From the NCBI GenBank assembly GCA_000004985.1, contig GG738866.1: a stretch of DNA of 64,000 nt. One strand, given 5' to 3'. The notes beneath the pieces are model-generated. The model had not been told where the DNA came from, searched no databases, and saw only the letters and a program-made list of their open reading frames with translations. How positions within the stretch are numbered: the stretch's first letter is position 1; each line of letters starts with the position of its first letter. This document shows, in pieces, positions 2,728 through 60,323 of the stretch. Source of the DNA: Naegleria gruberi (Eukaryota). Position numbers and translations under genes: made by a program.

Positions 2728-3408
2728 ATGGTTTGTGTCATTTTGCTATTGGATGTCAATAACACAGAATTGACCAACTCAACAGAAGAACACAGACGTT
2801 TATCTGCCAAGCTAAAGGATAAATATCAAACAACAGCCAAGTTGACCATCTTTGCACACTATTCCATCGATGATTCCAACAAACCTCAACATTATTTCAG
2901 CAGAAGAGATCCTTCATTCTCTCACAGCAGCTTACTAACTATGCCAGAATCTTCGTTCATCACAAACATTCTCCGATTTTATCCCAAAGCTCTAAAATAT
3001 GCACCTCCAGAATATAGAAATAATCAAGTTATAGTTTTGACAGCAGTTCGACATTATGATAGTTGTTTGGAATATGCTGGGGAGGAATTGTTGAATAGTT
3101 TACAGTTTGCTATGCGATTGGTGAGTGAGAGAGGTCTGTATTATAGATATTTACCTGAAAATGTCAAGTGTGAAAGACAAGTGGCAAGACAAGCTGTTAT
3201 GCAAAATGGGCACGTGTATCAGTTCCTATCTCAAGAATTGAGACAAGATGGAGAACTGTTAGTATTGGCAATGAAAACGAATAGTCAAGCCATTTCGTAT
3301 GCTCATCCTAAACTGTTATCTGAAATTAATAATCAAGAATTCAAGAGAGATTATTCTATACTATCTGAGAATAGAGATCATTTAAATGATTTGGCTATAA
3401 ATCCATAA
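2728..3408 (+). CDS. DUF4116-type repeat protein, 226 aa.
   Basis: Two or three ~45-aa repeats of the form ..ALKYAPPEYRNNQVIVLTAVRHYDSCLEYAGEEL.. and ..ARQAVMQNGHVYQFLSQELRQDGELLVLAMKTNSQAISYA.. These match the DUF4116 repeat pattern common in protist proteomes. Confidence 0.5.
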   Translation: MVCVILLLDVNNTELTNSTEEHRRLSAKLKDKYQTTAKLTIFAHYSIDDSNKPQHYFSRRDPSFSHSSLLTMPESSFITNILRFYPKALKYAPPEYRNNQVIVLTAVRHYDSCLEYAGEELLNSLQFAMRLVSERGLYYRYLPENVKCERQVARQAVMQNGHVYQFLSQELRQDGELLVLAMKTNSQAISYAHPKLLSEINNQEFKRDYSILSENRDHLNDLAINP

Positions 3409-3578: not shown

Positions 3579-5249
3579 ATGCAGCAAAATCGAAAGAATA
3601 GTAGGCAAGATCCAATTACATTGGAAAGGGTATACTTCTCTCCGGTATCATTGCAAAGTGATACTGAAAAACCATCATTATTCGAAAAAACTATTCGAAA
3701 GGAAAATCGTATTCATAATTTTTTCCTTAGTATTCGCATGAGTATTTGTACTTTCAATTTTATCATCTTTTTCATACTTGTTATAGTTTGTACATTAACT
3801 TTTGCTTTTTCCTTTCGCGATTCCTTTCGAATAGTTGAGAAGAAACAATCTGATGATTATTCGAAACAAACCATCAACGCTTTTCGAGATGAATTCTTAA
3901 ATCTTAATGACAAAATAGCCAACTATGCAATATGGGACAATATATACGAAATGGTCCATTCATCAAATGCTGCCAATCAAGTTTCTCTCTTCTTCCAAAC
4001 TTACTATCCCTGTTATTTCATGGAGAGAATGTCATTGAATTATATTGCAATGTATTATCCGAATGGTACCCTACTACATTACAAATCATGTTGGAATTTG
4101 GACGAAATTAATGGACTGATTGATGAATTAATTCATTTAGATTCGTTTTATTTAAGGAATTGGAATGATTCTTCAATGAGAGTGAATTCAATTTTGATAC
4201 CCAAACAGAAAATCAACAAGAAAACTTTCGAGTTGGAAATTCTTCCGCCAATTCAATTTAAAAATCATGCAAATCTTACGTATGAGGAAATTCTATTAAT
4301 TTCTGGAACCCCAATTCAAACTTTGAATACAAGTATGGCAGATGGGTTTATTATTTATGGAAGATATTTGGAAAGGGATGTTTTGAATGAAATTGCATTG
4401 AGAACTGGTCATTGCTTTACTGTTTATAATATGGATGATTTGACAGATGTGTCACAACTCAAAATTGATATGGATTTACAAAATGTGAATGGATTGAATG
4501 ATTCCCAAGTAGTATTTGAGTATTTAGAGAATGCCAATTATCATAATTTTGAATCTACTTTGAATGAATATTCATCTTTTTTTGATAGACACGAAATAGA
4601 AAGTTCAAGTTTTCTTACCAAAGTTTCACAAGTTTATTCATATGAAGATAGAACATGTCCTTCATACTTTGGAGTTTCAAATCCATCTACATCATCTGTT
4701 GGAACAAGATTAGTTAACTTTCTCTTATTCAGAGATTTTAAAAACAAGGCAGTAATGGTTGTGAGAATTGATGATGAGCGAAGGAATGAATCGATAATTA
4801 TTGGAGGATCCGCTTCAATCTATGTCTTCTTTGCACTTCTTTCCACAATCTTGAGTTTAGCATTGCAGGGATTTTTTGAAATTGGTATTATTCTAAGGGT
4901 TTCATCCATCCAAAAAATAATTAAGAAAGTCACACAAGACAATGACCCAACACTAAGAATACCCCCTCCAAAACACCAACTCCACGAAAAAGATGAAATT
5001 GGACAATTAGAAATCAACCTAAACGAAATGCTTCGAGCATTAGAATTGGTGCAACACAAACTCTCAAAAGATAACGAAATGATGAAAACAATTTTGGAGA
5101 GAATTACTGTAGAGGGAGAGAAATGTAAGGCAGTGATGAATAGTATTCAGGATTTTATATTTATTGTGGAGTGTGAGAGTGGAAAGTTGATTAGTTCGAA
5201 TGAAACATTTGAAAGAAAGGTTTCCAATGGTTCAAAAAATGTTTTGTGA
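3579..5249 (+). CDS. Two-TM sensor protein, 556 aa as annotated: large extracytoplasmic domain, then HAMP, then the start of a PAS domain. Broken by a frameshift at its 3' end.
   Basis: TM1 is ICTFNFIIFFILVIVCTLTFAF. It is followed by a ~330-aa N-glycosylation-rich ectodomain, then TM2 IIIGGSASIYVFFALLSTILSLALQGFF. A HAMP-like segment follows (..DEIGQLEINLNEMLRALELV..), then a PAS start (DFIFIVECESGKLISSNETFE). The ORF terminates at a TGA just after an A6 run at 5234-5239. Confidence 0.6.
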   Translation: MQQNRKNSRQDPITLERVYFSPVSLQSDTEKPSLFEKTIRKENRIHNFFLSIRMSICTFNFIIFFILVIVCTLTFAFSFRDSFRIVEKKQSDDYSKQTINAFRDEFLNLNDKIANYAIWDNIYEMVHSSNAANQVSLFFQTYYPCYFMERMSLNYIAMYYPNGTLLHYKSCWNLDEINGLIDELIHLDSFYLRNWNDSSMRVNSILIPKQKINKKTFELEILPPIQFKNHANLTYEEILLISGTPIQTLNTSMADGFIIYGRYLERDVLNEIALRTGHCFTVYNMDDLTDVSQLKIDMDLQNVNGLNDSQVVFEYLENANYHNFESTLNEYSSFFDRHEIESSSFLTKVSQVYSYEDRTCPSYFGVSNPSTSSVGTRLVNFLLFRDFKNKAVMVVRIDDERRNESIIIGGSASIYVFFALLSTILSLALQGFFEIGIILRVSSIQKIIKKVTQDNDPTLRIPPPKHQLHEKDEIGQLEINLNEMLRALELVQHKLSKDNEMMKTILERITVEGEKCKAVMNSIQDFIFIVECESGKLISSNETFERKVSNGSKNVL

Positions 5250-5888: not shown

Positions 5889-8644
5889 ATGAAGAATAAG
5901 GTAATTCCACAAGGTGAGGATAATACTCATCAACAAACACCTTCATCATCCACTTCATCAACAACACGAATGGCACTCCCAAACAAAACCTCCTCTAATA
6001 GCAGTATTGTTGTTGGGGGAGTGTCTCCTGTTGCCACATCTCCAGTAATGACCACCACCAACACCAACAACAAAACGACAAAACAAGATTCTTCCCAATC
6101 ATTCTCTATACAGGCAAGTGGGAAGGAGAGTGGTAAGGATTTAAAGGCCAGTTATCAAAGTTATCATTTTCATCCTAATCATGAGGATGAAAACGCCTCA
6201 ACCACCTCACATATGATGGAAATAGCCTATGGTGGAGGAATGTGTTTCAGATCAATAAGTTGCTGTTTGGTGGGGATTATATCTTCGTTGGTGATATTGT
6301 CGGTAGTTACATTGACTAGTATTTGGATATCAACTACTGTTCCAACATTAGCTGTGATGAGTTCGCAATTGAGAGTTGAGCAATTTTCAACAGTTGTAAA
6401 TAATATTAATCAAACGATACAGAATTTGGTCATTGGTATGTTTTTACTTTACCTTAATATACAAATAATACTTTTTCTAATTATAATTTAATATCTTGAT
6501 GGTATTTTTTATAGTATCTGAAACAACGAAAAGACTGTTAACAGAAGATTTTAATTTTTCAGATCCCTCCCTCATTGAAAAGACAATGTATAATTTGTAT
6601 AAGAGTGAAATGGCTCTAGGGCGATCTGAAATTACAATAACGCTGTATATTGGTGATACAGTGGGAAATTGTTGGGGGATTTATAGATCTGGTGATTCTG
6701 TCTTTTATCTAGATGTGAACAAACAACAGGGGCAGAAAATGTACCTTTGTGAAGATGTACAACACTCGGATTATTGCAAGAGAAATCTTGTGAATGCAAC
6801 TGTTGAACTGCCACCATTTGATCTTTCTCCATTGGTCACACATTCTCATGAGCATAGTGGAAGACCGTCATTTTCATTGAGTTATGTAGATTCGACAGTA
6901 CCTAGTGTGACTTTCCTTACACTCCTTAACACTTTCAATTCATCAAGAGTGAGCAATTTCAATTTCAATTATTATTTTGGTTATGATGTGACTTCAGCTT
7001 CAATTTCTTCTTTTCTAGAGAAACAAACCAAATCTGTTGATGGATCAGTTGCGTTTGTAATTGAAACTAAAACAGAATTCTTGATAGCATGTAGTGATAC
7101 TGCCCATCCCCTTGTTGAAGTTAATGAATCAAATGGAGAGGTGATCAGAAAAACTGGATTAACTTTTGCAGATGAATTAACATTCAAAATCGCTCAATTC
7201 ATGTATCATAGTGTAAATAATAATCTGAGCTCCCTAACTTGCGGAAAGGTTCTGTTGGCAGAGGGATCGTTGTACTATATCAATGCTATGAGAGTTTGTT
7301 CAGAACAGGATTTGGACTGGATTATCGTTTGGGCAACACCTCAGAATAGATATACTCAGAGTACAGTAATTGCATTGACAGTGTCTGGAATTTCAAGTAT
7401 TATCATTATCAGTGTTGCTCTCATTGTTGGATTTTTAGCATCCAAGTCAATTGTAAAACCATTTCACAAATTTATGCAGGCAGCAGAATCAATATCAAAT
7501 ATGGAATTGGAATCCTTTTCATTCTCAGATACTCGTATTATTGAAGTGGAAAAGCTGCAAAAAATGTTTGTCATGTTGGCAAATCGATTGAAAACCTACA
7601 GAAGTTTCCTACCTTCTAACGTCTTACTTGAAATTGATAATGGTGGAAAGGATATTAATGCCAATTCAAGTTATCACACCAAAGAATCTCATTTGGGATC
7701 ATTCCTAGTTGGAGGACATAGTAGAGGTTCAAGTTCTTTCAGCTTTAAGAAGAACAAACTGGCTTTAAGATTGGAAAAGAGACAAGTGACAATGTGTGGA
7801 ATTTATATTGAAGGATTTGATTATTGCATACATCATTTGGATTATCACGATATTATTATCATGTTGAGTGATTTATTTGACTCGATTCATAAAACTAGTC
7901 TGACTTCAGCTGCAGAAGTTGGACAATTCGATAACGAGCTCATCACTTTGGCCTGGAACTCCCTGGCTGATCAACCAAACCACATCTTTAGAGGAATTTC
8001 AAATTGTCACATTCTTAGAGATAAACTCTTGAAATCCCTTGAAAAATGGAATGCCAGAGAAGATATTGATCAAGCTCTCAATATTCGAATGTCGCTCCAC
8101 ACTCAAGAATCAATTGTTGGAAATATAGGTACGAGAGAAGCAAAGAGTCATGCCTCCATAGGAAGTTGCCATGCCAACATGAAGAAACTTTCCAAAACTT
8201 GTTCCAGCTTCTCAATTTCACTTCTGGTAACTGAACCAATTCACAAGGAATCTTCCGAATCATTCCTTACAAGATATATCGACACTATTCGATTGTTCCG
8301 TCAAAATGACTGCAGTATTAATATGAGTGAGGAAAAAACAGAAGATGTTGCAGTGTACGAAATTGGAAATAGAAATGATGTTAAAATGGATGGTAAGTAA
8401 TGCAAATATTATTGGCTTAACTAAACTATTTAAATTTCTAATAGAATGGATGTATGAATTGAAGGAAAGGGGAGAGAAAACCAAATGGGATCGATACATT
8501 CTAGGATGTCAATATTTCCACAATGAAGATTACAAAGAAGCTTTCGAATTTTTCGAAGATTATGAAACAATTTTCGAGGAAAGATATGGTCGCTCTGATT
8601 TACCAACTCTAAATCTAATGGCCAAGTGTAAATTGCATTTATAA
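5889..8644 (+). CDS. Receptor-type cyclase-homology protein with three exons: two-TM sensor, HAMP, then a class III nucleotidyl-cyclase-like domain with degenerate catalytic residues. About 874 aa.
   Basis: join(5889..6435,6515..8392,8445..8644). Intron 1 is a 79-nt GTATGT...ATAG intron and intron 2 is a 52-nt GTAAGT...AATAG intron; both restore the frame exactly. TM1 and TM2 flank a ~300-aa ectodomain, followed by HAMP (VKPFHKFMQAAESISNMELESF). The cyclase-homology domain reads RQVTMCGIYIEGFDY....AEVGQFDNELITLAWNS....ALNIRMSLHTQESIVGNIGT...SIGSCHANMKK. In the F-x-D-I-V-G-F-T position the first metal Asp is a Tyr. In the GDTVNxASR position Asn and Arg are replaced. Confidence 0.7.
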
Positions 8645-8676: not shown

Positions 8677-9810
8677 ATGTTTTCAAAAATTTGGAAGGCT
8701 TCTCTGACCTGTCATGATCTAAATATAAAGATTACAAAAAAAATGGGCAACAAGCAACCTTCCAACACTCCAGCCTTGCCTGCTGGTTATTCAAAGTCTT
8801 CATCATCGTGTACACCATCGAAGAGTAGTGGCCACTCTTTAATTACTGATTATTTTTCTACCAATTGTAAATTAATTAGAATTAGTGATGCTGATCGGAA
8901 ACAAGAATTGGAAAGTATGAATAGAAACAAAATTAAATATTCAAGTAAATTGGAAAATAATTTACCAGAGGAAATGATCATTCACATTTTGGATTATTTA
9001 CCCATTAGAAATTTAGTATTATTGCAACAAGTTTCGAAAAATTTCAAAATCTATTGGACTCTGTTTCCAGAATTGTGGACTAAATTTTCTGCTCCAATGA
9101 TGTACATGCCAGACAATAACGGAAATTGGACTAGCAGTTATATTCTCTTTCAACAATTCAAATTCAAATTGATGAATTCTTTTGTGAAGGATAAGAAAAC
9201 TCCTAATTTAGAAGGAAAAATTTCAAGAATTGCAGTGTTGGGTGATGATAAAATTGGAAAGACAATCCTTCATCATAGAGCATTTGGAGGTGAACCATTT
9301 TCAGAGATTTACACTTGGACCATTGGTGTCGAGTTTTTCAATCGAATTAATACTCAAAATTTATTGAGAATGCATTCGTGGGATTCTGGTGGTAATGAAC
9401 GATTTAGGGAAATTGTTTGGGGATATCACAAGACTGTAAAGAGTCACTTTTATTGTTTTGATTTGAATAATCACAATTCTTTTGAGAATGCCAAGAAATT
9501 ATTCTACTCTTGGAAGGAAAGATTTTTACAAACTGAAACTGTCGAGTCATTTTTGCAAAGTAATGAATCGTGCATTCTTCTACTGGGATTGAAATCAGAT
9601 TTGGAGCATAAAGTGACTCGAGATGAAATTCATGAATTTTTGGAAGATATTGAGCCACTTAAAAACAAGACACTTCACACCAGCAAAGTTCAATATTTTG
9701 AATTGAGCTCTAAATTAGATTCTGAATCGGATCTGCTTTTCCCATTTATTTATGCATGTTCGGTGGCGATTGAAAGGCCTCTTTTTTCTTCTTTTGGAGG
9801 TTCTAAATAG
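8677..9810 (+). CDS. F-box protein fused to a Rab-like small-GTPase domain with atypical G3/G4 motifs, 377 aa.
   Basis: F-box: LPEEMIIHILDYLPIRNLVLLQQVSKNFKIYWTLFPELW. GTPase domain: G1 is GDDKIGKT and switch I is TIGVEF. G3 is WDSGGNERF where the canonical form is WDTAGQERF (catalytic Gln is Asn). G4 is LKSD where the canonical form is NKxD. Confidence 0.7.
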   Translation: MFSKIWKASLTCHDLNIKITKKMGNKQPSNTPALPAGYSKSSSSCTPSKSSGHSLITDYFSTNCKLIRISDADRKQELESMNRNKIKYSSKLENNLPEEMIIHILDYLPIRNLVLLQQVSKNFKIYWTLFPELWTKFSAPMMYMPDNNGNWTSSYILFQQFKFKLMNSFVKDKKTPNLEGKISRIAVLGDDKIGKTILHHRAFGGEPFSEIYTWTIGVEFFNRINTQNLLRMHSWDSGGNERFREIVWGYHKTVKSHFYCFDLNNHNSFENAKKLFYSWKERFLQTETVESFLQSNESCILLLGLKSDLEHKVTRDEIHEFLEDIEPLKNKTLHTSKVQYFELSSKLDSESDLLFPFIYACSVAIERPLFSSFGGSK

Positions 9811-10966: not shown

Positions 10967-12134
10967 ATGATGACCAATCAACAACAATTTGTTAATCAAG
11001 CAACAATGGTTTATTATCGATATGATAAGGATAGAAATGGAGTTTTGAAGAAGAAGGAATTCAAGAAGGCTATGCAAGGTTTGTTTTTATATTTTGATAT
11101 CTTTGTTCCTAAAATGTGTCTTTTTCAAATTGTGGATGACAATGATGACGAATTTTCTCACTCTTGCATTTGTTCTACACCAATTAATTGCAATTACAAT
11201 TTTAGAAATGGGAGCTCATAAAGGTGAAACTAAGCATCTCTTCAAAATGGTTGATACTGATCACAATAAGGTCATCACTCTTAATGGTAAGTTTATTTAA
11301 CAACCGAGTGTAGGGTTTATTTACGCATGATGATTTTAGAATTTATTAATGGTATGTTTAAGCAATATTATGATTAGCTCATTAATTTTAGCATTCTTAT
11401 TCTTACAAAGTGGAGGTATGAGATATAAAGGAACTGGATATAGCGGAGCTTATGGAACTTTGGGATCAACAACCACAACCGTAACTTATACTGGAAAACC
11501 AGTGATGCAATCAGGAATGCAACCTCAAACAGGTTATGGTATGCCTCAAACAATGGCGGGCCAATATCCACCATCTCAACAATACCCTCCTCAACAAGGC
11601 TATCCACAACAAGGAATGACTAGCACTACCATGACAATGAATGGTCACCAATATCCACCTCAATATCCACCTCAATATCCACCACAACAAGGAATGCAAC
11701 CAGGTATGAATCCTCCAAGTTATCCACCACAACAAGGAATGCAACAACCTGGAATGTATAATCCTCAAACAAGTCAATATCCGCCTCAATCTGGAATGCA
11801 ACCACAACAAGGAATGTACGTTCCACAAACTGGTCAATATCCTCCACAACAACAAGGAATGCAACCAGGTATGAATCCTCCAAGTTATCCACAACAAGGA
11901 ATGTATACCCCTCAACAAGGAATGCAACCACAACAAGGCATGTATAATCCACAATCTGGCCAATACCCACCACAACAACAAGGAATGCCTCAACCTGGAA
12001 TGCAACCACAACAACAAGGAATGCAATATCCACAACAAGGCATGTACACTCCTCAAACTGGCCAATACCCACCACAACAACAAGGACAACAAGGAATGCA
12101 ATATCCACCTCAATATCCACCATCTCAACAATAA
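10967..12134 (+). CDS. EF-hand protein with a long Gln/Pro/Tyr/Gly/Met-rich C-terminal repeat domain. Three-exon model, about 311 aa.
   Basis: join(10967..11078,11206..11286,11392..12134). Exon 1 carries an EF-hand loop ([12 protein letters not shown]). Exon 2 carries a second, non-canonical loop ([12 protein letters not shown]). The phase-1 donors are GTTTGT at 11079 and GTAAGT at 11287, and the acceptors are TTTTAG at 11205 and TTTTAG at 11391, all keeping frame. The C-terminus is ~25 copies of YPPQQGMQP / GMYxPQTGQ units. Alternative: the EF-hand ORF ends at TAA 11300 and the repeat protein is a separate gene. Confidence 0.5.
11640..12120 (+). repeat. In-frame tandem coding repeat. Units of 27-45 nt encode (Y)PPQQGMQ(P)[13 protein letters not shown]-type motifs.
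   Basis: Recurrent near-identical nucleotide blocks (ccaccacaacaaggaatgcaacc..., caatatccacctcaatatcc...). This also generates long minus-strand shadow ORFs (11511..12131 and 11626..12123). Confidence 0.7.
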
Positions 12135-58505: not shown

Positions 58506-60323
58506 ATGAGAAAACTTGCCTCGTTTCTTGGTGGTGGTAAATCTTCATCATCAAATGGTTCTTCTTCATCACCTTCAGCATCGGGTACTAGTAATGAAAG
58601 AGTTTCATCCAACAAACAGCAAGGTTCCCTTTCTATAGTAACAACATCATCAATTGGTGTTGCCGTTGGTGATTCTTCATCATCTCCATCATCAAATAAT
58701 AATAACAATGGAAGTAAAACTCCAAGAAGTAATTTCTCTAGATCGACTAGTAATACTAAAATTAATTCTTCATCATCCTCTTCATTGGAAAGGAATAATA
58801 TTGAACAGGAAATTCAAAATATAATTTTTAATACTTCACAAATTAATACACTCTCCAAAGTACCTAATGTTCAACCGGAATATTATTTGAAAATTGTTGT
58901 TTTGGGAGGACCATCTGTTGGAAAATCGGCAATAATTAATAGATATTTGAAAAATAAGGATCATCCTGCTTTATCAGTAACAAAGAGTGGATTGTACATA
59001 CCAACAATAGGAGTCGACATGTATAGTAAGCCTGTTAAGAAATATAGAGATGCTTCGATAACAAAATGTAAATCAATTCAATTTCCAGTGAGATTGACGA
59101 TACTAGATGTTCCACATAGTGAATTTATGAAACAATCAGTGTCAAAATATTTTGAAAATGCACATGGAATAGTGTTAGCTTTTGATGTGACTAATATCAA
59201 GTCAATTAGTGCTATTGATCAGTGGCGATCCAAAATTCCATCACATCTCCTTACAAGTACAGTTTTACTTGCCCATAAAGCCGAGTTAAAGCCACACATT
59301 ATCACTCCAAACTCTCTAGATAATTATGTTAGAGATTCTGGATTATTGGCATGGTTTTCAACATCGATTAGAAATTTCCAATCCATCAATGGAGCATTCC
59401 AATACCTTGTCGATAGAAGTCTGTCAAAATTAATCAAAAAATATCAAGGACTGCCTACATTGAATCATCAAATGAATGCTGTCTCAATGGCTAGAAAATC
59501 TTCATCGATTCCATTGGCAGAATCCAAGTCTGATAACTTGGCCGAGTCTCTTCAATATTCCAATTCTGTAGAATCCAATTCTGATACAGGATCTATTTCT
59601 AAGGATGATTCCAAACAAATAGTGGAAGGATTTTCTACTCTCTACGACATGTTGGAGGACAAGAATCCAAATTTAACAATGGAATTTATAGAAAAATTCA
59701 GAAGTGAAATTACATCTTTTTATTTCCAATTATCAAGCAGATTTAAAGAGTTCAAAGTGGTATGTCAGAGTTGTGACACGAGCTCAAACGATCAAAAGTT
59801 GATGGATCTACTGATAAATGAATGTGATGCTGAAAGAATCATTCTCCTTAACAAATTAGCTCTCGTTGAAAAGGAACTTGTAAAGTGTAATAGTATCTAT
59901 ACGGAAAATAATACTCCCATGAAAAATCTCACCAAACTGTACATTGAACTCAAGAGAGAATTTTATATTGTAAAGATTGAAAAATGGATAAGTTTTTGGT
60001 ATTCCTTAAAATCAAGATTTTGCCTGAGTCAAATTTTCTACAAGGACACCAAACAAGATTGTCAACAATTACCAGAGATTTCGGAATCACTCTACAGCCA
60101 ACCTATCAATCAAAATATTGTAGCCAAACTGGAAAGCAGAAGGGCAAAAATTGAAAAACTCAAACAACATTCCAAAATACAATCTAAAGAAATATCTCAG
60201 AAAGAGGATGAAAATCTTGTAGAGAGTGATAGTACATTCTCTGTTATCAATCAAATTTTCAAAGCAGAAATGTATGTGGACATATTCCCTCAATTAACAG
60301 AACTCAATAAATTAAATAAATAG
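58506..60323 (+). CDS. Rab-like pseudo-GTPase, 605 aa: an intact P-loop with degenerate G3/G4 motifs and a long C-terminal coiled-coil.
   Basis: A Ser-rich N-terminus is followed by the G domain. G1 is GGPSVGKS and switch I is TIGVDM. G3 is LDVPHSE where the canonical form is WDTAGQE. G4 is AHKAELK where the canonical form is GNKxDL. A ~300-aa helical tail follows. Confidence 0.7.
   Translation: MRKLASFLGGGKSSSSNGSSSSPSASGTSNERVSSNKQQGSLSIVTTSSIGVAVGDSSSSPSSNNNNNGSKTPRSNFSRSTSNTKINSSSSSSLERNNIEQEIQNIIFNTSQINTLSKVPNVQPEYYLKIVVLGGPSVGKSAIINRYLKNKDHPALSVTKSGLYIPTIGVDMYSKPVKKYRDASITKCKSIQFPVRLTILDVPHSEFMKQSVSKYFENAHGIVLAFDVTNIKSISAIDQWRSKIPSHLLTSTVLLAHKAELKPHIITPNSLDNYVRDSGLLAWFSTSIRNFQSINGAFQYLVDRSLSKLIKKYQGLPTLNHQMNAVSMARKSSSIPLAESKSDNLAESLQYSNSVESNSDTGSISKDDSKQIVEGFSTLYDMLEDKNPNLTMEFIEKFRSEITSFYFQLSSRFKEFKVVCQSCDTSSNDQKLMDLLINECDAERIILLNKLALVEKELVKCNSIYTENNTPMKNLTKLYIELKREFYIVKIEKWISFWYSLKSRFCLSQIFYKDTKQDCQQLPEISESLYSQPINQNIVAKLESRRAKIEKLKQHSKIQSKEISQKEDENLVESDSTFSVINQIFKAEMYVDIFPQLTELNKLNK

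Follow-up and report, generated by a model that had tools for sequence, protein, structure and literature searches.

An F-box–Rab-like fusion protein of Naegleria gruberi, a member of a published heterolobosean family and a candidate nucleotide-gated SCF substrate receptor

In the 2021 Naegleria reannotation, Naegleria-specific Rab-like clades with N-terminal F-boxes were described and GTPase-dependent ubiquitination was proposed for them, with the remark that no specific functional prediction was possible from sequence (Herman et al. 2021, BMC Biol 19:142; PMC8296547). The same work reported that the family comprises dozens of fast-evolving paralogues under birth-and-death evolution, pseudogenes included, and that RhoBTB also occurs in Naegleria. 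A related architecture is known from the Euglenozoa, where TbFRP is a FYVE–F-box–Ras/Rab-like GTPase (PMC3593210). Among fusions of this general kind, Rab40 has been shown experimentally to recruit EPLIN, Rap2, ANKRD28, and DNAJC13 for ubiquitination.

We analyzed a stretch of 64,000 nucleotides of N. gruberi DNA (contig GG738866.1 of assembly GCA_000004985.1), referred to here as the window. Positions 8677..9810 of the plus strand hold a single uninterrupted ORF of 377 aa plus stop, whose translation is identical, letter for letter, to the corrected model of XP_002677491.1 in Table S8 (Supplementary Material 4) of Herman et al. (2021; PMC8296547). In that table the gene is placed in class "Rab" with the additional domain "F-box" and carries no pseudogene flag; the original NCBI model at the locus had been manually corrected. 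Given this identity and an N-terminal F-box extension upstream of a divergent Rab-like domain, the window gene belongs to the heterolobosean F-box–Rab-like set. A preliminary description, made from the letters of the window, had presented the architecture as an unusual one. The gene, its architecture, and the hypothesis are in fact already in print, and the locus is nothing new in kind and does not qualify as a discovery. Substitutions in the G motifs, conservation of Met-Gly at the start, and Willaertia are not commented upon by Herman et al. What is added here is the likely start at nt 8743, the family-wide Gln and Asn substitutions, and the range of the family into Willaertia. The features of the locus are as follows.

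8677..9810, plus strand: maximal ORF, 377 aa plus stop, equal to the published corrected model of XP_002677491.1
8743..9810, plus strand: probable true CDS, 355 aa from Met23 (MGNKQPS...), from paralogue alignment, ATG context, and upstream spacing
8746..8748, plus strand: Gly2 of the probable CDS, candidate N-myristoylation site suggested by family conservation
8959..9063, plus strand: F-box domain with core LPEEMIIHILDYLPIRNLVLLQQVSKNFKIYW, aa 95-129 in the 377-aa ORF (Pfam PF00646, PF12937)
9064..9228, plus strand: linker between F-box and G domain, predicted to be largely helical and to pack against both domains (AF2 model)
9229..9726, plus strand: Rab-like Ras-superfamily G domain, aa 185-350 (Pfam Ras, PDB sequence matches, Foldseek)
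9241..9264, plus strand: G1/P-loop GDDKIGKT, canonical GxxxxGK[ST], with Gly and Lys invariant in the family alignment
9313..9336, plus strand: switch I/G2 Thr and RabF1-like motif TWTIGVEF, RabF1 4/5 identical
9379..9405, plus strand: G3 WDSGGNERF, DxxG intact, Asn at the position of the catalytic Gln (sequence motif)
9589..9600, plus strand: G4 LKSD against canonical NKxD, Leu for Asn, Lys and Asp kept (sequence motif)
9703..9714, plus strand: G5 LSSK against the Rab consensus TSAK (sequence motif)
9715..9807, plus strand: short C-terminal helix and tail (...FSSFGGSK) without a Cys prenylation motif (sequence)

Word-indexed homology searches returned only four full-length relatives, and the family came into view by exhaustive HMMER search. 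The same fusion, which the preliminary description had proposed looking for in other protists, was found in N. lovaniensis and Willaertia magna, so that the architecture is kept in three heterolobosean species. The family thus extends to Willaertia, whereas the published clades were described as Naegleria-specific. For the comparisons below, G motifs and termini were surveyed in 27 family members, and conservation was read from an alignment (A2) of 17 divergent members sharing 24 to 49% identity. The window protein and five printed or retrieved paralogues share the signatures GLKSDL, (R/K)VQYFELSSK, and FPFxY. Peptides built on such signatures (A4) gave no relative in 185,579 bacterial and archaeal genomes, a search that is family-specific and insensitive to distant Rab-like effectors. 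No relatives were found by tblastn in viral contigs, where giant viruses of amoebae had been in mind, and no exact-sequence record of the window protein or of its paralogue P0001 was found in the contig collection. Within the window itself, tblastn of the window protein detected no second family member in the 64 kb. The sole other match there was a weak one, to the ORF at 58857-59336, which has a Ras domain but is unrelated (E=0.02).

The true start of the protein is probably Met23 (nt 8743), which would place the previously assumed start at 8677 some 66 nt too far upstream. The published model of Herman et al. (2021) also uses the upstream ATG. Paralogue N termini read MG(N/Q) and align at Met23 of the window ORF, as does P0001, which begins MGNNQQP; a Met-Gly start was present in 22 of the 27 members. 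The context of the ATG at 8743, aaaaaaaATGg, follows the A-rich norm of the window, in which 16 of 20 ORFs have A at -3; the ATG at 8677 has C at -3 and lacks the A-rich context. Only 32 nt separate the stop of the upstream gene from the ATG at 8677, compared with 98 nt for that at 8743. Gly2 of the shorter CDS is at least 90% conserved in the family alignment. A pattern resembling PROSITE PS00008 was matched by 15 of the 27 members, and the window protein fails it, having Pro at +5. Its Gly2 therefore appears to lie in a suboptimal context and is a candidate myristoylation site at best.

The N-terminal F-box named in the preliminary description was confirmed by Pfam. PF00646 matched aa 95-129 with E=2.7e-7 (30.7 bits against a cutoff of 20.5) and PF12937 with E=1.7e-6 (28.1 bits against 24.3). 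When the F-box segment was compared with the PDB as a single sequence, the only matches were to FtsQ and BCS1; these were chance-level noise (E of at least 0.17), and F-box identity was settled by the family profile. That profile (A5) matched solved F-box proteins with E values from 7e-5 to 2e-2, among them KDM2A/B, FBXL5, FBXW8, Cdc4, FBXW7, FBXL2, FBXO4, Skp2, and cyclin F, as well as AnkB and FBXO31, and nothing but F-boxes rose above noise. The LP, L, F, and W positions of the F-box are invariant or nearly so across the family. In the linker, the AF2 model places helices at residues 99-105, 109-113, and 129-146 (355-aa numbering) with pLDDT values of 71 to 87, and the paralogues share a conserved motif, K(L/I)xNSF.

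The C-terminal assignment to the Rab/Ras G domains also held. The Ras profile PF00071 matched aa 185-350 with E=1e-16 (61.3 bits against a cutoff of 21.6) and spanned positions 2-148 of the 162 in the profile. All 60 of the 60 PDB sequence matches listed were Rab, Ypt, or Sec4 proteins (E of about 1e-12 to 1e-10); among these matches the domain is, by sequence, closest to Rabs rather than to Ras, Rho, Ran, or Arf. The AlphaFold2 model (mean pLDDT 82, pTM 0.79) shows the strand-helix alternation in G-domain order, and Foldseek aligned it to Ras, Rab, and Rho crystal structures with target-normalized TM-scores of 0.74 to 0.86, or about 0.8, in agreement with the earlier expectation of a small-GTPase fold. 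The full-length pTM suggests that F-box, linker, and G domain form a rigid unit, as in classical F-box receptors. Membership in the Rab family proper is a different matter. Measured against the RabF1-RabF5 motifs of Pereira-Leal and Seabra, the window protein is identical at 4/5 positions of RabF1 and 4/6 of RabF3 and at only 1/5 of RabF2, 1/5 of RabF4, and 1/6 of RabF5. It thus departs from bona fide Rabs in the RabF1-RabF5 set, in Cys prenylation, in the catalytic Gln, and in NKxD. None of the 27 members has a Rab-type CC or CxC C terminus. The degenerate member XP_002680417, which has lost P-loop and G3, ends in RCLL, fitting a CaaX pattern. Since the window protein has no C-terminal prenylation site, membrane targeting, if there is any, would rest on the N-terminal Met-Gly and its possible myristoylation.

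G1 to G5 could all be located in canonical order, including the intact P-loop GDDKIGKT, WDSGGNERF at G3, and LKSD at G4 that had been pointed out before. The residues for phosphate, Mg2+, and base-edge contacts are kept (GK[ST], Thr, DxxG, G4 Lys and Asp, G5 SxK). With P-loop, switch-I Thr, DxxG, G4 Lys/Asp, and G5 in place, binding of guanine nucleotide and Mg2+ has probably been preserved. Most family members keep the same elements: P-loop Gly and Lys are invariant, and conservation among the 17 aligned members is 90% or higher at DxxG Gly, G4 Lys, and G5 Ser. That conservation across divergent members falls on the residues contacting the nucleotide is an argument for selection on nucleotide binding. 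The two substitutions are family-wide traits in the survey and not quirks of the window gene. The G4 Asn is absent in 27/27 members, with G4 reading [LMFT][KLR]x[DE] where alignable, and the catalytic Gln occurs in 1/27, the others having N, D, H, S, G, E, K, or other residues.

Altered or absent GTP hydrolysis had been expected from these substitutions. With Asn in place of the catalytic Gln, intrinsic hydrolysis is indeed probably weakened, but loss of the Gln in cis need not abolish hydrolysis on its own, as TBC RabGAPs provide a catalytic Gln in trans. The lost Asn of G4 had further been taken for the guanine-specificity residue. In Ras this determinant is D119, the Asp of NKxD, whereas the Asn mainly stabilizes the nucleotide pocket; Rac and Cdc42 carry TKxD naturally. 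The Asp is retained in LKSD, so altered specificity is not predicted. We likewise rejected a changed base preference (ATP or XTP) as the default, since G4 Asp and G5 SxK are both present. Leu in place of the G4 Asn probably loosens the base pocket, with lower affinity or faster exchange being the more likely outcome. Nucleotide binding by members of the family may be weak, as the G4 Asn is absent throughout and Ras loses nucleotide affinity when N116 is mutated.

We tentatively favor, at somewhat below an even chance, the reading that the window protein is a nucleotide-gated SCF substrate receptor belonging to a heterolobosean F-box–Rab-like expansion. The N-terminal F-box would dock the protein onto Skp1-Cul1-Rbx1, and the Rab-like G domain would fill the place usually taken by WD40, LRR, or Kelch modules. 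If its switch/interswitch surface bound partners in one nucleotide state only, ubiquitination would become nucleotide gated. The G domain might be GTP biased, fast exchanging, or GAP dependent, and any membrane targeting might proceed via the conserved Met-Gly. The suggestion that the protein presents a Rab-like decoy to the SCF found no support, as an F-box would make it a receptor and not a substrate. Weighing against the receptor reading are the loss of the G4 Asn, the existence of degenerate members and pseudogenes, and the failed myristoylation pattern of the window protein. A broader version, which we regard as possible but doubtful, would make the whole family N-myristoylated, membrane-tethered SCF receptors with the switch surface as degron reader. 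The loss of Gln and Asn would then turn them into slow-hydrolyzing, fast-exchanging sensors instead of timers, possibly sharing an origin with euglenozoan FRP as an ancient invention of Discoba.

Any functional reading presupposes that the fusion is real. Two adjacent genes, or an unrecognized intron or stop, might have been joined by ORF calling, and the manual correction of the NCBI model indicates that automated models at the locus are imperfect; nothing else was found in favor of such an artifact. The preliminary description had seen no stop or intron between the halves, and the frame is indeed single and uninterrupted across all 377 codons. About 20 homologues (N. gruberi, N. lovaniensis, Willaertia magna, and environmental contigs) share the order of F-box, linker, and G domain, each as one continuous HMMER match. 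With F-box and G domain covered together by these matches, the fusion cannot be put down to an accident of ORF calling; the full-length AF2 model is also compact. The chance of an artifact is practically negligible, and this reading can be regarded as effectively refuted already. The G domain could, on the other hand, be a pseudo-GTPase, either a nucleotide-independent scaffold or part of a decaying paralogue under relaxed constraint. The variability at the catalytic Gln, the family-wide loss of the G4 Asn, the pseudogenes and degenerate members, and the almost unrecognizable RabF2, RabF4, and RabF5 would all agree with this. We nevertheless consider it quite unlikely, given that the ORF is intact and unflagged in Table S8, that the window protein keeps every class of nucleotide contact listed above, and that conservation within the family peaks at these very positions; relaxed constraint would have had the reverse effect.

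The remaining alternatives differ in what the F-box does. The protein could be mainly a Rab-like signaling or trafficking GTPase whose F-box couples it to the SCF for its own rapid turnover, a form of autoregulation that we judge unlikely. Auto-ubiquitination is common among F-box proteins, which counts in its favor. Self-turnover was also proposed by the authors of TbFRP, a protein that is rapidly processed and whose F-box was suggested to drive turnover; the same authors found no TbFRP orthologue in N. gruberi (PMC3593210), a point against this reading. Moreover, an F-box is a Skp1-binding adaptor, degrons usually being short motifs and not F-boxes, and the predicted rigid unit together with strong F-box conservation is at least equally compatible with a receptor role. 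Alternatively, the F-box could sit in a non-SCF Skp1 complex acting directly in membrane traffic. In yeast, Rcy1-Skp1 reportedly works in this manner, the F-box protein acting together with Ypt31/32, which are Rab GTPases, and independently of Cul1. The Rab-like G domain and a conserved Gly2 suggestive of membrane association would suit such a role, but dozens of fast-evolving paralogues resemble a diversified family of substrate receptors more closely than they do a core factor of membrane traffic, and we hold it to be very unlikely.

The substrate-receptor reading draws on analogy with other fusions of GTPases and ubiquitin-ligase adaptors, none of which is identical in design. Like the window protein, TbFRP (PMC3593210) is a single polypeptide whose F-box precedes a Rab-like G domain, and its lineage and Naegleria both fall within Discoba. 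TbFRP differs in having an N-terminal PI3P-binding FYVE domain, for which the window protein gave no Pfam match with E values up to 1. In Rab40a/b/c, a Rab-family G domain is likewise fused to a cullin-RING-ligase adaptor motif, making a CRL5 substrate receptor. The adaptor there is a C-terminal SOCS box binding ElonginB/C-Cul5 instead of an F-box; Pfam detected no SOCS box in the window protein, so that the likeness is one of functional analogy only. The G motifs of Rab40 are also canonical, and its C-terminal prenylation is retained. RhoBTB1/2/3 similarly join an atypical small-GTPase domain to a cullin adaptor, with an N-terminal G domain, tandem BTB domains, and Cul3, compared with F-box and Cul1 here. 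PDE5 binding of RhoBTB1 was mapped to the C-terminal, BTB-containing half and not to the GTPase domain, and to this extent the analogy is imperfect. Legionella effectors can combine a Rab domain with an F-box or U-box in one protein (Gomez-Valero et al., bioRxiv 10.1101/350777); these are secreted by bacteria that parasitize amoebae, including Naegleria. By analogy, Rab40-SOCS/Cul5 and RhoBTB/Cul3 provide a precedent for fusions of small GTPases and cullin adaptors as substrate receptors. Such fusions tie protein degradation directly to a nucleotide switch, and the F-box–Rab-like family of Naegleria, relatives of the pathogen N. fowleri included, could be a natural system for GTP-gated ubiquitination.

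The F-box and the Rab-like G domain lie in a single unbroken ORF of 377 codons, 8677..9810 (+), in an AT-rich window (GC of approximately 0.33 to 0.37) whose ORFs are tightly packed. All Pfam F-box and Ras matches of the window protein exceeded the curated cut-offs, and the Roc and Arf models scored below Ras PF00071. A PDB sequence search with the window protein listed 60 matches, all of them Rab, Ypt, or Sec4 (E values of approximately 1e-12 to 1e-10). The G motifs were located in the translation.

Domains and motifs of the F-box–Rab-like ORF
aa 95-129, + strand: F-box (Pfam PF00646, E=2.7e-7; PF12937, E=1.7e-6)
aa 185-350, + strand: Ras-family G domain (Pfam PF00071, E=1e-16)
nt 9241-9264, + strand: G1, GDDKIGKT
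nt 9313-9336, + strand: switch I, TWTIGVEF
nt 9379-9405, + strand: G3, WDSGGNERF
nt 9589-9600, + strand: G4, LKSD
nt 9703-9714, + strand: G5, LSSK

Since the continuous ORF, the Pfam domains, the PDB matches, and the three motifs quoted in the preliminary description (G1, G3, and G4) were all present, each motif where it had been placed, the fusion reported there was confirmed. The architecture, called unusual there, is not unrecognized. The nearest database protein, a Naegleria gruberi entry of 363 aa named "rab family small GTPase" with 49% identity, also contains an F-box and a Ras domain. Table S8 of the N. fowleri genome paper (PMC8296547), a manual reannotation covering all N. gruberi Ras-superfamily genes, prints a corrected model for XP_002677491.1, with the class "Rab" and the additional domain "F-box." The translation of 8677..9810 is identical to this model letter for letter; therefore, the window DNA is that of N. 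gruberi, and gene and architecture are already curated and published. Supplementary Material 4 of the same paper reports nearly 90 Rab or Rab-like loci in N. gruberi and three divergent Rab-like clades without close relatives beyond Naegleria, whose N-terminal extension can, at least for some members, be recognized as an F-box. The F-box is the commonest extra domain on Naegleria GTPases (on Rab, Rho, and Ran as well as G-alpha), and sequence permits no specific functional prediction (PMC8296547). The window gene is a member of this known F-box–Rab-like expansion. Our additions are all minor: family-wide motif states, a probable start codon, a conserved Gly2, and Willaertia homologues.

P0001, an N. 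gruberi paralogue, starts with MGNNQQP and aligns to the second Met of the window protein (MGNKQPS, residue 23, nt 8743); a Met-Gly start occurs in 22 of 27 family members. The context of ATG 8743 is aaaaaaaATGg and that of ATG 8677 is gttcatATGt, with C at position -3, where 16 of the 20 long ORFs of the window have A. Over positions -10 to -1, A makes up a fraction of 0.8 before ATG 8743 and 0.3 before ATG 8677 (window mean, 0.57), and the two codons lie 98 and 32 nt, respectively, downstream of the stop of the upstream gene. Paralogue alignment, ATG context, and spacing all point to ATG 8743 as the most likely start of a CDS of 355 aa; the published corrected model (Table S8, PMC8296547), which starts at ATG 8677 and additionally contains 8677..8742 (+), is probably 22 codons too long.

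AlphaFold2, run on the 355-aa form with an alignment of 36 sequences, yielded a model with a mean pLDDT of 82 and a pTM of 0.79. Approximately the first 28 residues are disordered, followed by a helical F-box and linker (helices 49-66, 69-72, 76-84, 88-97, 99-105, 109-113, and 129-146) and then by the alternation of strands and helices typical of G domains. Foldseek against the PDB retrieved Ras, Rab, Rho, and Ran structures (TM-score of 0.74 to 0.86, normalized to target). A pTM this high suggests a rigid arrangement of F-box, linker, and G domain like that of classical F-box receptors. Searched against the PDB by itself, the F-box segment returned nothing beyond chance-level FtsQ matches, being too short to be detected by pairwise comparison. 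A family profile built from 20 sequences matched KDM2A/B, FBXL5, FBXW8, Cdc4, FBXW7, FBXL2, FBXO4, Skp2, cyclin F, Legionella AnkB, and FBXO31 (E values of 7e-5 to 3e-2) and essentially nothing else, which supports the F-box being genuine.

An exhaustive HMMER search using a two-sequence profile returned approximately 20 cluster representatives whose match runs without a break across F-box and G domain. These comprise N. gruberi XP_002672819, XP_002674035/4104, XP_002672693, XP_002673544, and XP_002677172; N. lovaniensis XP_044554748, XP_044544452, and locus C9374_009435; Willaertia magna KAL9645677, KAL9645612, and KAL9650264; and further members on metagenome contigs. Both domains were seen by Pfam in one N. 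lovaniensis and one Willaertia member. Given its presence in Willaertia, the family is heterolobosean rather than strictly Naegleria specific. This slightly extends the published claim of Naegleria-specific clades; the supplements of that paper contain no mention of Willaertia (PMC8296547). Relatives were found neither in viral contigs nor in bacterial and archaeal genomes, the latter probed with family-signature peptides. The two closest N. lovaniensis relatives, P0039 (C9374_009431) and P0193 (C9374_009435), share an 836-kb contig with locus tags four apart, and in N. gruberi a single contig likewise carries both P0001 and P0042, which suggests that family members were duplicated locally.

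No second family member was present in the 64-kb window. A further multidomain Ras-superfamily gene, 58506..60323 (+), encodes 605 aa, of which aa 129-304 make up a Ras-family domain (Pfam E=5e-16) flanked by N-terminal (approximately 125 aa) and C-terminal (approximately 300 aa) extensions without Pfam matches. The upstream gene, 5889..8644 (+), is seemingly split over ORFs 5889..6491, 6496..8400, and 8327..8644, none with a Pfam domain, and likely contains a short intron (gtaagt near 8396, ...tag near 8443). A 261-aa low-complexity protein rich in Q/P/G/M/Y repeats (QYPPQQGM...) and without a Pfam match is encoded at 11349..12134 (+), opposite long spurious antisense ORFs. The 556-aa ORF 3579..5249 (+) carries CHASE4 (Pfam E=4.7e-11), an extracellular sensor module found mostly in bacterial signaling proteins and unusual in a eukaryote. 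In ORF 2728..3408 (+), of 226 aa, DUF4116 is repeated four times and makes up the protein (Pfam E=1.5e-39). A "DUF41" domain is recorded for a multidomain N. gruberi Rab5 model (Table S8, PMC8296547).

The RabF1 and RabF3 motifs are identical at 4/5 and 4/6 positions in the window protein, and RabF2, F4, and F5 are unrecognizable, with one identical residue each. It has no C-terminal Cys motif, and none of the subgroup members has a Rab-type CC/CxC C terminus. By best similarity, the protein counts as Rab-like, yet it lacks several defining Rab features. A conserved Gly2 combined with a missing C-terminal Cys suggests N-myristoylation as a putative membrane anchor. A PROSITE-type myristoylation pattern fits 15 of the 27 members, and two Willaertia members also have Cys residues nearby. 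The window protein, with Pro at +5, misses this pattern, so that its lipidation is only a possibility.

Motif states were surveyed in an alignment of the 27 members and two canonical N. gruberi Rabs. Nearly all members have an intact P loop (GxxxxGK[ST]), most retain DxxG, and most have E[LIV]S[SCTA]K as G5. The position of the catalytic Gln is occupied by N, D, H, S, G, E, K, or others, with Gln in a single member; G4 is [LMFT][KLR]x[DE] where alignable and never contains Asn. Both substitutions highlighted in the preliminary description are thus family traits and not peculiar to the window gene. In a 17-member alignment (24 to 49% identity), the P-loop Gly and Lys, DxxG Gly, G4 Lys, G5 Ser, F-box Pro/Leu/Phe/Trp, and Gly2 are invariant or at least 90% conserved; conservation is strongest at the residues that contact phosphate, Mg2+, and the base edge. 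Guanine specificity is set by the Asp of NKxD (Ras D119), which the window protein retains in LKSD. The Asn (Ras N116) stabilizes the pocket, its loss usually leading to lower affinity or faster exchange, and Rac and Cdc42 have TKxD by nature. As TBC RabGAPs supply the catalytic Gln in trans, loss of the cis Gln lowers intrinsic but not necessarily GAP-stimulated hydrolysis. On these grounds, the G domain is read as probably nucleotide binding with weak intrinsic hydrolysis and unswitched base specificity: the suggested change in hydrolysis stands as a weakening, whereas its absence and an altered specificity do not follow. A subgroup member, XP_002680417.1, has a degenerate P loop (GDGFLQKR), no G3, a degenerate G4 (GFLSDN), and an intact F-box; it is likely a pseudo-GTPase and carries no pseudogene flag in Table S8 (PMC8296547).

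The best-supported reading, to which we give slightly less than an even chance, is that the window protein is a nucleotide-gated SCF substrate receptor. Its F-box would dock onto Skp1–Cul1 through predicted Skp1 binding, the Rab-like switch surface would recruit partners in one nucleotide state, and weakened hydrolysis together with an altered base pocket may bias the nucleotide cycle. A pseudo-GTPase scaffold or decaying paralogue is improbable: the birth-and-death dynamics of the family (PMC8296547) support it, but the conservation pattern in the 17-member alignment opposes it. Less likely still is a non-SCF Skp1 complex working in membrane traffic, as yeast Rcy1 reportedly does. Rather more plausible than these two, but still unlikely, is that the F-box drives the protein's own turnover, a role proposed for TbFRP, the FYVE–F-box–GTPase protein of Euglenozoa (PMC3593210). 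An annotation artefact as the source of the fusion is highly improbable and was rejected.

Functional analogues of the window protein are Rab40–SOCS box/Cul5, Legionella Rab effectors with F-boxes (bioRxiv 10.1101/350777), and RhoBTB/Cul3. TbFRP is a further analogue (PMC3593210); it has a FYVE domain, whereas Pfam finds none in the window protein. Two environmental proteins combine F-box and Rab with near-canonical G motifs: P0118 (Logan assembly, 552 aa), with an N-terminal aspartyl/asparaginyl beta-hydroxylase domain before F-box and Rab and the CaaX end CSLL, and P0180 (JGI metagenome, 291 aa), with an F-box and a canonical Rab (WDTFGQERF, GTKLDL). These are independent fusions, and F-box–Rab proteins thus also arise with canonical G motifs.
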